Shown: positions 4,358-20,591 of the stretch, piece after piece | Position numbering within the stretch: the stretch's first letter is position 1 | Layout: each line of letters begins with the position of its first letter | DNA from: an uncultured Thermoleophilia bacterium | GTDB taxonomy: Bacteria > Actinomycetota > Thermoleophilia > Gaiellales > Gaiellaceae | NCBI GenBank assembly: GCA_963823265.1 | Contig: CAWGLA010000011.1 | Coordinates: 57,877 to 121,876, forward strand | Direction of reading: 5' to 3' | DNA length: 64,000 bases | The notes under the pieces: model-generated | What the model saw: the letters and a program-made list of their open reading frames with translations, nothing else | What the model was told of the DNA's origin: nothing | Database searches by the model: none | Made by a program: the position numbers and the translations under genes

Positions 4358-4591
4358 CTAGTGAACGGTTTCGTTCTCGCGCGGCGGCGCAGGCGTGCCG
4401 GCGTCCTGCGTCCCTACCGGCAGCTGTGTCGTCTGAACCGGCTCGGGCTTGTCGTGCCCCGTCACCGAGTCCTTGAACTCTCGCATCCCGCTGCCGAGGG
4501 AGCGTCCGATCTCCGGCAGCCGCTTGGCGCCGAAGAGGAGGAGGGCGAGCAGGAGCAAGCCTGCGATCTCGAGCGGACCAATGTTGGACAT
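4358..4591 (-). CDS. tatA: twin-arginine translocase subunit TatA/E
   Basis: 77 aa. [33 protein letters not shown] gives an N-terminal TM helix plus an amphipathic helix. It sits directly upstream of tatC. Confidence 0.85.
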
Positions 4592-4737
4592 GGGGCCAGC
4601 GTATCAGCGTTTACGGCCGATCCAGGTGGGAGAACCAAGTATTAACCTCGGCCTTCGGAGGCCGCTGGGCTACGATGATCGGTGCACGGGAACGGGCCAT
4701 GCGCCTCGTTCCGGAAGCCCTCAAGGACTCGGAGACC

Positions 4738-5513
<776 letters not shown>

Positions 5514-5514
<1 letters not shown>

Positions 5515-6947
5515 TGGCACAGACCGAATCCGAGATCGTCCAGGAGATCGGTGCCGACTACGGCACCAAGTACGGCTTCTCGAACCCGGACGAGGCAAAG
5601 GACTACTTCTTCAAGAGCGGACGGGGGCTCTCGCACGACCTGGTCGACGCGATCTCGGCGCACAAGGGTGAGCCTGAGTGGATGAACAAGTTCCGGCACA
5701 AGTCGCTCGACTACTTCCTCGCGCGGCCGATGCCCACGTGGGGCGGGATGCCGTCGCTGGCCGAGATCGACTTCGAGAACATCTACTACTACATCAAGCC
5801 GACCGAGAACCAGGCCGACTCGTGGGAGGACCTGCCCGCGGACATCAAGGACACCTGGGACAAGCTCGGCATCCCCGAGGCCGAGAAGAACTATCTCGCC
5901 GGCGTCGGAGCCCAGTACGAGAGCGAGGTCGTGTACCACAAGCTGCAGGAGCACCTCACGGCACAGGGCGTGATCTTCCTCGACACCGACACCGCGCTTC
6001 GCGAGCACGAGGACCTGTTCAAGCAGTACTTCGGCACGATCATCCCGCAGAACGACAACAAGTTCGCGGCGCTGAACAGCGCCGTCTGGTCGGGCGGCTC
6101 GTTCATCTACGTGCCGAAGGGTGTGAGGATCGACCTGCCGCTGCAGGCCTACTTCCGGATCAACGCGGAGAACATGGGCCAGTTCGAGCGCACGCTGATC
6201 CTCGTGGACGAGGACGCATACGTGCACTACGTCGAGGGCTGCACCGCGCCGATCTACTCGACCGACTCGCTGCACAGCGCCGTGGTCGAGATCGTGGTCA
6301 AGAAGGGCGGCCGCTGCCGCTACACGACGATCCAGAACTGGTCGAACAACGTCTACAACCTCGTCACCAAGCGCGCGGTCGCCGAGGAGAACGCGACCAT
6401 GGAATGGGTCGACGGGAACCTGGGCTCGAAGCTGACGATGAAGTATCCGGCGATCTGGCTCACCGGCAAGGCCGCGCACGGCGAGGTGCTGTCGATCGCG
6501 TTCGCCGGCAAGGGCCAGCATCAGGACGCGGGTGGCAAGTGCGTCCACATCGCCCCGAAGACGACTAGCGTGATCACATCGAAGTCGATCTCGAAGAACG
6601 GCGGCCGCGCCGGCTACCGTGGGCTGCTCGAGGTCGCGAAGGGAGCGAGCGGCGCGCGGTCGAAGGTCGTCTGCGACGCGCTGATCCTCGACGATGAATC
6701 GCGTTCCGACACGTATCCGTACATCCGCATCGACGAGAACGACGTCGACATCGGCCACGAGGCGACCGTGTCGAAGATCGGCGAGGAGCAGCTCTTCTAT
6801 CTCATGTCGCGCGGGCTCTCCGAGTCGGACGCATCGGCGATGGTGGTCAGCGGCTTCGTCGAGCCGATCACCAAGGAGCTGCCGCTCGAGTACGCCGTCG
6901 AGATGAACCGCCTGATCCAGCTGCAGATGGAGGGGTCGGTAGGTTGA
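5514..6947 (+). CDS. sufB: Fe-S cluster assembly scaffold SufB
   Basis: The ATG overlaps the sufC stop (TGATG). [22 protein letters not shown]...[23 protein letters not shown]...[14 protein letters not shown]...[20 protein letters not shown] is the typical SufB pattern. Confidence 0.92.
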
Positions 6948-17426: not shown

Positions 17427-18314
17427 TCAGGCGGAGCGGCGGATCTGCTCGTCGAGTGGGACGAGTGTGAGCCGGAACGTGTCGGCGGCATCCGTGTTCG
17501 ACACGATGTTGTCTGCGCCCTGGAGCATCGTCACCTGATCGACGGACAGCGGGGCACGGGGGAGCCACTGCGTCAGCTGCGCGCCGGTGCGGGCAACGCC
17601 GATCGGGACGTGCACGAGCCTGCGGCGCTTCCCGAGGACCTTGGCGATCGTCCGGTAGAGACCGTTCCAGTCGACGATGTCGGGACCGCCGAGCTCGAAG
17701 ATCCTGTTGGCGGCGTCCGGAGCGTCGATCGCGCGGGCGAAGTGCTCGGCGACGTCGTCGACCCAGATCGGCTGCGAGCGCTGCAGCCCGGCTCCGATCA
17801 CGGTGACGACGGGCGAGTAGCGCACTTGCTTCAGGAACGTCGGCAGCGCACCGCCGTCGCGCCCGAAGACGAAGCTCGGCCGGAAGATCACGTGCTCGAG
17901 CCCGGAGTCGATCACCGCCTGCTCCTCCGCCCACTTTGCCGCGTAGTACGGGACGGTGCCCTCCGAAGCCTCGCTCGTCCCGAGCGCGCTCATCAGGACG
18001 AACCGCTCGACACCCGCCTCCTGCGCCGCTGCGACGAGATCACGTGTGCCCTGCGTCATCACGCGGCGGAAGTCCTCGGGGCTGCCCTGGATGATCGCGA
18101 CGAGATGGACCACGTGCGTGCAGCCCGCGACGGCGGCGCGCAGGCTTGCCGGGTCGGTGATGTCGCCCGCCGCGAGCTCGACGCCGAGCGAGCGCAGGTG
18201 CGCCGCCTGCTCGGGCCTCCGCACGAGCGCACGGACGTCACGCCCCTGCGCGCGCAGCGCATGCACGATCCTCGGTCCGACGAACCCGGTCGCCCCCGTC
18301 ACCAAGACCTTCAC
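17427..18314 (-). CDS. NAD(P)H-binding NmrA/NDUFA9-like epimerase-family protein
   Basis: [20 protein letters not shown]... is a Rossmann GxxGxxG motif. The GTG start overlaps the dcd stop (GTGA). This is the C-terminal part of track ORF 17427..19226. Confidence 0.8.
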
Positions 18315-19906
18315 TGGGAGAAGTTCTGCCAGTAGCGGGAAGGCGTCGGGCCGCGCTGGCCCTGGTACTTCGAGCCGAGCGACGAGCTGCCGTACGGCGA
18401 AGCCGCCGGCTCGGTCAGCTGCATGAAGGAGATCTGGCCGATCTTCATCGCGTGGTAGATCGTGATCGGGAGGTTCGCGACGTTGGACAGCTCGAGCGTC
18501 ACGTGGCCGTCCCAGCCCGGGTCGATGAACCCTGCGGTCGAGTGGATCAGCAGGCCCAGCCGGCCGAGCGACGAGTTGTGGGTCGGCACGTAGGAACGGG
18601 TGACGAGGAACTGGCCGCTTGGCGACGAGACCTCGATGCAGCGCACCGGCACGCTTGCGACCGGCCGGACGTCGACGACGGCCCGAAAGCGGTGGAACCG
18701 TCCTTCGAGCTTCTGCCGGATCGCCTTTCTGATCACTCGAAAGACCGGTTCGTTCGCCATGAACTGGACCTCGAACTTCGGGCCGCAGTCGACCCCGTTG
18801 AGCACCGCGCGCTTCCGCGCAAGCGTTGGCCTGAAGCCGAGGCTCGAGACGAGCTCCATGTATTGGAGCGCGAGTGGCTCCAGAATCGTGGTGAGATCGC
18901 AGCGTCCGAGCTTGTCGACGTAGCCGTCGGTGTCCATGAGGCCCTCGAGGAGCGCCAGGCGCTGGTTGACGGATGAGCGCAGGTAGATCTCCGGAATGTG
19001 CTTGTGCCCGGCGAGGCCGTTTGCTCGCAGCGTGCTGGACAGAGAATCGTTTGCCTCGTAACGCCCTGTTCCGGGATTGCGCGTATGCCCGGTACCACCG
19101 ATTCGATACTGAAACCGCTGCGTACGAGCTTTCGTGACCGCGTAGCCGGCCATCTCGATCTCTTCGAGGATCTCGCGATCGGCGCAAGTGATCTCGGCCT
19201 TCGTCGAGGTTCCGTCGCCGAGCCACGCACCAAGGACATAGGGAGCGATCGGCAGGTCGCGTTTTGGATATTGCACGGCGTTCGTCAGGGCGATCTGGTG
19301 ATTCCGCTCTCCTCGAACTCGAAGTGTGCCGGCGAGCTCTGCGGCGGTCCGAACGCGTGGAACGTGCTTGCCGTGCTCGCGGTCAGGCTTGGCGACCGTG
19401 ACCCACTGGTGGCTCTCATCGCAGACGATCGCGGTGCCCTCTGACAGGAGAACCTCGACGCAGGGGCGTCGAAGCATCGGAGCAGTCGCGGCCACGACGA
19501 CCGTCGGCTCGCCGAGCTCGTTGAACACCAGGTCTCCGACCTCGACGTCGCGCATCGTCTTCCAGCCGGCTGGTGTCGGGACCTCCGTGTCCAGAGCCAG
19601 GGCCTTCCCTTCCAGACGTGCCACGAGGTCGTCCGGCAGCGCGACCCGCTCGAGCGTCGAGCCGAGGACGAACTCGCCCGGGTGCAGGATGAACGGCTCG
19701 TCGTCTCCGATCTCGACGGCCTCGGTCAGCGCCTCCTGCGGCTGCTTCACGTCGATGAACGGATACCGCGCGTTGTGGAAGACCCGAAAGTAACGGTCGA
19801 CGCGCACGTCGACGCTCGAAGGCTGCAGGAGCGACGGCTCATACGGATCGATCTTGATCCGGCCTTCGCCGATGAGCCTTTCGATGGTGCGATCGGAGAG
19901 GACCAC
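18311..19906 (-). CDS. dcd: dCTP deaminase interrupted by an intein
   Basis: The N-extein is 101 aa ([12 protein letters not shown]...LVARLEGK) and the C-extein is 87 aa ([31 protein letters not shown]...). Joined, they give a normal-length Dcd. The start is GTG at 19906. Confidence 0.9.
18575..19603 (-). mobile_element. intein with LAGLIDADG homing-endonuclease domain (343 aa)
   Basis: It begins [14 protein letters not shown] (Ala1, codon GCC) and ends ...YVPTHN, followed by Ser+1. The LAGLIDADG motifs are [10 protein letters not shown] and [12 protein letters not shown]. Block B reads DESHQW and block F reads VRCIEV. Confidence 0.8.
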
Positions 19907-20369
19907 GACCTGATTCTTCCATCAGCGCGTCGCCGAGGGCGCTTAGTCCCTTCAGGAACGCCGCCTGCTCGTCGGCGTCGAGCTTCGCGAGCGCCTGCTC
20001 GAGCGGCTTGCTGCGCCGCTCGAGCCAGCTCCGCACTGCGCTCGTCGTCTCCGCGTGCAGACGAACGACGGTGCGGCGGCGGTCGGCCGGGTCCTCGCGG
20101 CGTTCGATCAGTCGGTGCTCCTCGAGCTCCCGGGTCAGCTTGCTCACCGCCGGCAGGGAGAGGCCGAGCGCGGCGGCGAGCTCGGACACGGTCTGCTCCC
20201 CTTCGGTGCCGATGTGCGCGAGCAGGGCCACGTGCCGCCGTCCGAGGGGCGGGTCGCCGTGGACGAGCGCGAGCAGCTCGCCGGTCGGGCGCCGGCGGCC
20301 CCAGAGGCCGCGCATCACACGCCGGAGCGAAGCGCGGAGCTCGGCCAGTTGCTGCTCTTTTGTTATCAT
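19839..20369 (-). CDS. MarR-family transcriptional regulator
   Basis: [17 protein letters not shown]...[56 protein letters not shown]. The track ORF starts further upstream, and the ATG at 20369 was chosen. The 3' end overlaps dcd by 68 nt. Confidence 0.8.
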
Positions 20370-20371
20370 CG

Positions 20372-20384
20372 GATAACTATTATC
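20372..20384. promoter_or_regulatory. AT-rich inverted repeat GATAA-cta-TTATC in the marR / small-ORF divergent region (possible operator)
   Basis: This is the only AT-rich island in the neighbourhood. It lies between the marR ATG (20369) and the divergent small ORF (20412). Confidence 0.3.
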
Positions 20385-20411
20385 GAAAGATAAGAGAGGA
20401 GGTGAGCGTAC

Positions 20412-20591
20412 ATGTGTGGAGGACACCATCATCGTCGCGGCCGTCGCGGCTACCCGAACCGGGAGCAGTGGGTCGAGCGGCTTCAGTCCTACCGCGACCA
20501 TCTCGAGGGCGAGCTCAAGAACGTCCAGGAGCTGATCGAGCGGCTTGGATCGCCGGCGGACGACACGCCCCAGCCGACGCAGTCGGCGTAG
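20412..20591 (+). CDS. small hypothetical protein (59 aa), not in the ORF track
   Basis: The RBS AGAGAGGAGGTGAGCGTAC precedes the ATG. The product is MCGGHHHRRGRRGYPNREQWVERLQSYRDHLEGELKNVQELIERLGSPADDTPQPTQSA. GC-rich third codon positions are consistent with coding sequence. Confidence 0.45.
   Translation: MCGGHHHRRGRRGYPNREQWVERLQSYRDHLEGELKNVQELIERLGSPADDTPQPTQSA

Follow-up and report, generated by a model that had tools for sequence, protein, structure and literature searches.

Why should a dCTP deaminase be encoded as a protein of 531 amino acids (aa)? The question is raised by the dcd gene in a stretch of 64,000 nucleotides (hereafter the window) from an uncultured Thermoleophilia bacterium of the family Gaiellaceae (GenBank assembly GCA_963823265.1, contig CAWGLA010000011.1, positions 57,877 to 121,876 of the forward strand). 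A preliminary description of the window had judged this open reading frame (ORF) to be about 340 aa too long and had proposed that the excess is an intein. The excess proved to be an insert of 343 aa, located exactly at 18575-19603 as described there. From comparison with solved inteins and with related genes we conclude that it is very probably a full-length intein of class 3, probably active and equipped with a homing endonuclease of the LAGLIDADG type, in the Lys101/Ser102 loop of the dCTP deaminase Dcd. The features of the locus, in positions of the window, are as follows:

18311..19906, minus strand: dcd precursor ORF, 531 aa, GTG start; matched by TIGR02274 in two stretches
19604..19906, minus strand: N-extein, Dcd residues 1-101, ending ...ARLEGK; Pfam DCD at 2-101, collinear with residues 1-101 of Mycobacterium tuberculosis Dcd:dut
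18575..19603, minus strand: putative intein, 343 aa, ALALDTEV...YVPTHN; supported by phmmer, by AlphaFold2 (AF2) with Foldseek, and by the blastn break against empty alleles
19304..19603, minus strand: N-terminal splicing half, blocks A and B; residues 1-78 aligned to 6BS8 with identical numbering
Codons of the N-terminal half, minus strand: Ala1 19601-19603, Cys48 19460-19462, Asp62 19418-19420, His65 19409-19411, Trp67 (B:12) 19403-19405
18704..19303, minus strand: LAGLIDADG homing-endonuclease domain, intein residues ~101-300; Pfam LAGLIDADG_3 and Hom_end, PI-SceI matches in sequence and fold
19205-19240, minus strand: LAGLIDADG motif 1, 12 residues, contains LGDG; Asp130 codon 19214-19216
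18917-18955, minus strand: LAGLIDADG motif 2, 13 residues, contains DTDG; Asp226 codon 18926-18928
18575..18703, minus strand: C-terminal splicing half, blocks F and G; residues 309-343 aligned to 6RIX 111-145 and 6BS8 106-139
Codons of the C-terminal half, minus strand: Cys322 (F:4) 18638-18640, Thr341 (G:5) 18581-18583, His342 18578-18580, Asn343 18575-18577
18311..18574, minus strand: C-extein, Dcd residues 102-188 and stop codon; begins with Ser+1 (18572-18574), Ser102 of the mature enzyme

The insert comprises precursor residues 102-444, opening with GCC (Ala) at codon 102 and closing with AAC (Asn) at codon 444, and is followed by TCG (Ser). On the precursor, Pfam DCD and NCBIfam TIGR02274 cover residues 2-101 and restart at residue 445, with a LAGLIDADG_3 match between them; the TIGR02274 score is 205 bits, against a curated cut-off of 92.8. 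Deletion of the 343 residues restores the contiguous Dcd that had been predicted, a product of 188 aa whose residues 1-186 give a gap-free alignment with M. tuberculosis Dcd:dut (2QXX, E 3e-79); one stretch of 14 residues is identical in the two proteins. The spliced product keeps Ser102, Asp119, Glu129, and Gln148, the residues of deaminase and dUTPase activity, and Ser102, Asp119, and Gln148 are reported to be indispensable for the dUTPase activity of M. tuberculosis Dcd:dut (Helt et al., as cited in PMC3360063). As the residue numbering is shared with the latter enzyme, the +1 Ser of the intein corresponds to Ser102. Judged from these alignments, the host is a bifunctional-type dCTP deaminase (Dcd:dut), in which the intein lies between Lys101 and Ser102 inside the loop that bears Ser102; this agrees with the earlier placement within the motif GK/SSLGRLG (here and below, a slash in a sequence marks an insertion point or a junction).

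What kind of element the insert is follows from its resemblance to inteins of known structure. In a phmmer comparison with sequences of the PDB, the first 70-78 and the last 35 residues match class 3 DnaB inteins, namely those of Mycobacterium chimaera (6RIX and 6RIY, E 4e-26 and 2e-25) and Mycobacterium smegmatis (DnaBi1, 6BS8, E 3.5e-24), and the middle part matches PI-SceI. In the alignment Ala1, Cys48, Asp62, His65, and Trp67 carry the same numbers in the insert and in M. smegmatis DnaBi1, and Cys322, Thr341, His342, and Asn343 align with Cys118, Thr137, His138, and Asn139 of DnaBi1, the spacing from Cys to Thr being 19 residues in both; the roles of these residues in DnaBi1 have been described (PMC6195587). 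Class 3 inteins are defined by a set of residues that includes positions B:12, F:4, and G:5 (Tori et al., 2010; PMC2807308), and all the sequence features of that definition are found here. Residue 1 is Ala (GCC, in ALALDTEV) and not Cys, Ser or Thr, as it is in 120 of 120 homologs. A Trp occupies B:12, two residues after the block B His (His65-Gln-Trp67), a Cys occupies F:4 (VPVRC322IEV, aligned to VPVRC118VEV of 6BS8), and a Thr at G:5 is followed by His and Asn (Thr341-His342-Asn343). The insert thus ends in VPTHN, and the residue after it is an invariant Ser+1. The Trp, Cys, and Thr had been assigned to these positions by eye; the placements now rest on comparison with class 3 inteins whose structures are solved and whose mechanism is proven (PMC6195587, PMC7664689, PMC2807308), and the assignment, and with it the class-3-type designation, is therefore correct.

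The model and profile searches agree with this view. AF2, run with an alignment of 62 sequences, gave a model with pLDDT 91.7 and pTM 0.89 that has the HINT fold expected of a class 3 intein. In Foldseek searches the model matched PI-SceI over its whole length (TMq 0.76), and its HINT part matched 6BS8 and 6RIX (TMt 0.79-0.84, with 0.84 for 6BS8), as well as Hedgehog and other inteins. Pfam identified LAGLIDADG_3 (E 2e-7) and Hom_end in the insert. The two LAGLIDADG motifs that had been noticed earlier are thus confirmed and located; they are similar to those of PI-SceI, and by analogy with that enzyme Asp130 and Asp226 are the putative catalytic residues. No Pfam or NCBIfam intein or HINT model matched the splicing domain at E <= 1, the LAGLIDADG models being the only ones with a match.

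The same residues bear on the other splicing classes. In a class 1 intein residue 1 is a nucleophile (Cys, Ser or Thr); in this one it is Ala. Splicing of the class 2 (KlbA-like) type, in which Ser+1 would attack the N-terminal junction directly and no block F thioester would form, might be considered in view of Ala1, which is common to KlbA inteins. We regard it as extremely unlikely, since class 2 inteins do not have the Trp/Cys/Thr (WCT) triplet (PMC2807308), which is complete here, and the nearest relatives of known structure belong to class 3 and lose splicing when the block F Cys is mutated (C118A; PMC6195587).

We infer how the intein splices, that its endonuclease cuts DNA, and in which direction the extein switch considered below took place; the individual splicing steps are taken from homology to M. 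smegmatis DnaBi1, M. chimaera DnaB1 (MchDnaB1), and MP-Be DnaB. The precursor of 531 aa would be inactive, because the active-site loop with Ser102 is split. Cys322 of block F would attack the Lys101-Ala1 bond, aided by Asp62, His65, and Trp67, to yield a branched thioester intermediate, from which the N-extein would be transferred to the side chain of Ser+1. Cyclization of Asn343, aided by His342, would release the intein, and an O-to-N acyl shift would then create the Lys101-Ser102 peptide bond of the 188-aa enzyme. The freed 343-aa protein, a PI-SceI-like endonuclease, is predicted to cut intein-less dcd in the region GGG AAG/TCG TCG, and repair would copy the intein into the cut allele (homing).

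Among known systems, the M. smegmatis DnaBi1 (6BS8) and M. chimaera DnaB-1 (6RIX/6RIY) inteins share with the Dcd intein the start ALAL(D/Y)T, the motifs VPVRC(I/V)EV and VPTHN, Ser+1, and the residues GK at positions -2 and -1. Unlike the Dcd intein, which keeps a LAGLIDADG domain of 200 aa, they have been reduced to mini-inteins (139-145 aa) by loss of the endonuclease, and they reside in the Walker-A P-loop of DnaB, whereas the host of the Dcd intein is a dCTP deaminase of the dUTPase fold. The full-length architecture recurs in class 3 inteins with LAGLIDADG from phages (Brevibacterium phage Rousseau DnaB, Acidovorax phage ACF1 TerL, and the Cas4-type proteins of the mycobacteriophages Bixzunavirus and Myrnavirus), with 33-39% identity over ~350 aa; their hosts differ in being phage replication and packaging proteins. 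The prototype of these phage inteins is that of MP-Be DnaB (PMC2807308), and the best phage relative of the Dcd intein is that of Rousseau DnaB, with the junctions GEGAGK/ALALDT...IPTHN/TT. A Dcd-like host suggested by the alignment of Bixzunavirus gp217 into the exteins was rejected as a chance extension, as Pfam finds only endonuclease matches in gp217; its Myrnavirus counterpart (ScoobyDoobyDoo) has been described as a Cas4-type exonuclease (bioRxiv 10.1101/2025.01.02.630785).

The Dcd of cyanophage vB_AphaS-CL131 also has an intein in this active-site loop, and its splicing has been shown in E. coli (PMC6293099). Comparison of the sequences shows that it is a different element: its site (IGKSTYAR/C...VKN/CGII) lies five residues downstream, it has Cys1 and Cys+1 and is of the class 1 type, and it carries an HNH endonuclease instead of LAGLIDADG. 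Further Dcd inteins are mentioned for one proteobacterium and one member of the Chloroflexi (MacGregor 2013, as cited in PMC6293099). PI-SceI (the VMA1 intein) and related bifunctional inteins have the same two-domain architecture, endonuclease fold, and similar LAGLIDADG motifs; PI-SceI, however, is a class 1 intein (Cys1, Asp in block F) in another host, with ~16% identity.

Whether the element is functional can be judged from its conservation. With the full precursor as the query, a protein search retrieved ~530-aa proteins that fall into 120 clusters (at 90% identity) and are 69-81% identical to the precursor; the named members come from Gaiellaceae or Gaiella metagenome-assembled genomes (MAGs) and are labeled solely 'dCTP deaminase'. 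Twelve residues (A1, C48, D62, H65, W67, D130, D226, C322, T341, H342, N343, and S+1) are invariant in all 120. In addition, a scan of GTDB species genomes detected 291 related loci, of which 80 were listed and examined; the counts of Dcd-intein genes given below refer to these 80, the other 211 standing outside them. Full-length Dcd-intein genes make up ~65 of the 80, at the identical EGK/.../SSLGRLG site and with the same twelve residues, and they span two phyla. By their labels, the carriers belong to Gaiellales, Solirubrobacterales and Thermoleophilaceae, Acidimicrobiales and Microthrixaceae, and, in the Chloroflexota, to Limnocylindria and Chloroflexia. Across 13 Gaiellales genes, the Nei-Gojobori omega of the splicing domain is 0.25 and that of the endonuclease 0.20, compared with 0.22 in the exteins; such low values for both parts of the intein indicate that both of its functions are under purifying selection.

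These data also argue against a dead element, that is, an insert that no longer splices and has left dcd a pseudogene. There is a precedent in the class 3-like intein of Arthrobacter Arth_1007 (PMC3196547), in which the triplet reads WDT. In the present case the full WCT triplet is found, the catalytic residues are all invariant in >180 sequences, and the exteins are intact, with the low omega given above and the four activity residues of the enzyme kept. We therefore consider loss of function very unlikely.

Some members of the family depart from the full-length form. Two loci carry independent in-frame deletions that are limited to the endonuclease domain, with all splicing residues retained: L064 (3001-4392) is without intein residues 235-299 and L074 (3001-4410) without residues 138-199. 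Both resemble intermediates on the way to a mini-intein. Apparent frameshifts or premature stops occur in the Dcd-intein genes of L021, L065, L068, L073, L075, and L078, and in the C-terminal part of that of L071; the isolate names of these loci all begin with MFD, and the cause could be indel errors of assembly, which we assume as one possibility, or real decay. Two further loci have unexpected taxonomic labels. L017, labeled Gemmatimonadota, has Dcd exteins that are 80% identical to those of the window and nearest to a Gaiella sequence, and L024, labeled Candidatus Acidiferrales, has a Chloroflexi sequence as its nearest extein neighbor, which points to mis-binned contigs or to real cross-phylum transfer of the whole gene.

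If the intein is mobile, intact empty targets are expected among related genomes. The preliminary description had proposed a search of orthologous dcd genes for empty or occupied sites, and both were found: the site is empty in syntenic species and occupied in the ~65 loci described above. Four syntenic genomes (L080-L083), with 84-88% nucleotide identity to the window and 95-97% extein identity, encode a Dcd of 188 aa, and the blastn alignments of these genomes to the window break at 19604/18577, a clean difference of 1029 bp. When the spliced product was used as the query, none of the 120 closest Dcd clusters contained the intein. Their aa identity was 85-96%, apart from a single cluster at 75%, and their lengths of 186-323 aa, mostly 187-193, leave no room for it. 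The nearest occupied genomes are more distant than the empty ones, at ~77% nucleotide identity. The distribution is thus sporadic, with intact empty targets in relatives, as is characteristic of homing endonucleases. The composition of the intein also differs from that of its host gene: its GC content at third codon positions (GC3) is 0.79, against 0.915 in the exteins, and its overall GC content is within the lowest 3% of windows of equal size. An assembly artefact, raised earlier as a possible explanation of the insert, was rejected, as related sequences occur at 291 independent genome loci and in 120 protein clusters, and clean empty sites are found in the syntenic genomes. Taken together, the boundaries, the empty sites, the deletions, and the composition fit an element of the homing cycle.

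Where such an element could have come from is suggested by its wider family. When 1.84 billion representative proteins were searched exhaustively by HMMER for relatives of the intein alone, 18,091 clusters matched at E <= 1e-3, of which 13,224 did so at E <= 1e-10. Most of this very large family occupies the Walker-A P-loops (GK/S or GK/T) of phage terminases and helicases. Among the best 133 full-length matches, 123 start with Ala and 101 are inserted at a GK/S or GK/T junction; together with the query (134 sequences) they have the Trp, Cys, and Thr without exception and Cys48 in 122 cases. The hosts checked in the family are terminase large subunits (TerL), DnaB-like helicases, and FtsK. Six Dcd proteins are present among the best 133 matches, five of which group with the query in a neighbor-joining tree, with the sixth (P0268, NGK/SSIARL) standing apart. 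Two inteins in one terminase large subunit were observed in L086 (225-3650) and in P0121; in L086 a class 3 intein in the P-loop (GPGK/ALALDT...PTHN/S) is accompanied by a Cys1...VHN/C intein of the class 1 type near the C-terminus.

At the Dcd site, EGK/SS, the residues at -2, -1, and +1 are the same as at the Walker-A insertion site, while Dcd is not a P-loop protein. For the class 3 inteins of phages, resemblance between nucleotide-binding sites has been proposed as a route by which an intein switches exteins (bioRxiv 10.1101/2025.01.02.630785). Most likely the shared context allowed one or more such switches into Dcd, which has no P-loop, presumably from the P-loops of terminases or helicases.

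Several observations weigh against an active element that moves between hosts and exteins. The resemblance between Dcd and the P-loop is limited to three residues, and every carrier among the 80 loci is a MAG. The relationships of the intein mostly track host taxonomy, its nucleotide divergence is near the genomic background, and no co-conversion tract was visible beside the site where one was looked for. A phage-borne Dcd with this intein was sought in IMG/VR and INPHARED and none was found; phages as the vector were rejected as well, the IMG/VR and phage searches giving only P-loop inteins of <=40% identity. Much of this is consistent with a long residence by vertical descent and loss now and then.

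Such residence would be expected of a domesticated intein, one that splices but is no longer mobile and is inherited vertically, kept either because precise loss is difficult or because it acts as a post-translational switch. That the nearest neighbors of the intein mostly agree with the host clades, that its nucleotide identity is close to that of the flanking genome, that co-conversion is not seen, and that variants with deletions in the endonuclease domain exist can all be accommodated in this way. On the other hand, both catalytic LAGLIDADG Asp residues are invariant, and the omega of the endonuclease (0.20) is as low as that of the exteins. The closest relatives are empty, yet more distant genera and another phylum are occupied, and near-identical hosts can have very different inteins, as in the pair L018 and L019, whose exteins differ by 3% and inteins by 26%. 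On balance domestication seems to us unlikely, albeit the most credible of the alternatives, and a full-length intein with a probably working endonuclease is preferred.

Recent horizontal transfer is not demonstrated, because the divergence of the intein is near the genomic background. Synonymous divergence (dS) is 1-2.2 in the intein versus 0.4-0.6 in the exteins, a contrast that we considered and dropped as proof of transfer, as the nucleotide identity of the intein is about that of its flanks and the extein GC3 of 0.915 points to a constraint by codon bias. Likewise, the loci L013 and L016, with a 100% identical intein and an extein difference of 8%, were rejected as a case of fresh transfer, since the contigs are 99.9% identical over 4483 bp. 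This shared segment covers the N-extein and the intein, and divergence begins inside the C-extein; the two loci probably represent one population split between two bins, or a chimeric contig, and not transfer of the intein.

A further question is whether splicing could be regulated. In DnaBi1 a disulfide between Cys48 and Cys118 blocks splicing (PMC6195587), and Cys48 and Cys322 of the Dcd intein sit at the corresponding positions. By analogy, a Cys48-Cys322 disulfide formed under oxidative stress might halt splicing, and hence the supply of dUMP and dTTP, until reducing conditions return. Both Cys residues are invariant in all Dcd inteins examined, and the insertion splits the Ser102 loop. 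Against this, Cys48 is found in 122 of 134 family sequences irrespective of the host, and the splicing reaction of DnaBi1 depends on it; that it is conserved is therefore no argument for regulation specific to Dcd. A redox-gated switch thus appears improbable, and a Dcd-specific regulatory role of Cys48 and Cys322 is speculative. We would give similarly little credence to the combined scenario in which mimicry of a P-loop by EGK/SS at the protein level let the intein jump in, and Cys48/Cys322 now ties dUMP and dTTP synthesis to the redox state in soil Actinomycetota and Chloroflexota.

The original account of class 3 inteins placed them exclusively in proteins of the helicase and terminase types, for the most part in P-loops (PMC2807308), and a 2025 survey of actinobacteriophages reported them in just four host proteins (bioRxiv 10.1101/2025.01.02.630785). 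Our full-text literature searches, whose coverage did not extend to InBase and MacGregor 2013, did not turn up any class 3 intein reported from Dcd. Dcd is thus a new host, and Lys101/Ser102 a new insertion site, for a large and well-characterized intein family. The general understanding of inteins is unchanged by this case; what it adds is a class 3 intein in a differently folded enzyme, one of nucleotide metabolism, where the junction imitates GK/S. This makes it a natural test case for the relative contributions of splicing-compatible extein residues and endonuclease specificity to target choice. Surveys that rely on Pfam-type models or on protein names would probably undercount the class 3 family, because the splicing domain has no match to an intein model and the proteins are named simply dCTP deaminase. 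Being related to the redox-trap intein DnaBi1 but full-length, with its endonuclease intact, the intein could also serve protein engineering.

Two other ORFs of the window were considered. A second intein, suspected in SufB from an ORF of 832 aa (4449-6947, plus strand), was rejected as a spurious upstream run-on. SufB domains are found just at residues 497-803 of this ORF, which overlaps a low-GC stretch at 5000-6200; the true SufB start lies near residue 365 (MAQTESEI, ~5541 in the window), and the part upstream is rich in Arg, as is typical of run-on reading frames in high-GC DNA. The other is an ORF for a MarR-family regulator (19839-20501, minus strand; Pfam MarR_2, E 5.5e-14), which lies directly upstream of dcd and has the same orientation. 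Its listed 3' end overlaps the first 68 nucleotides of dcd, which is either an unusually long overlap or an indication that the Arg/His-rich tail of the predicted regulator is not real.

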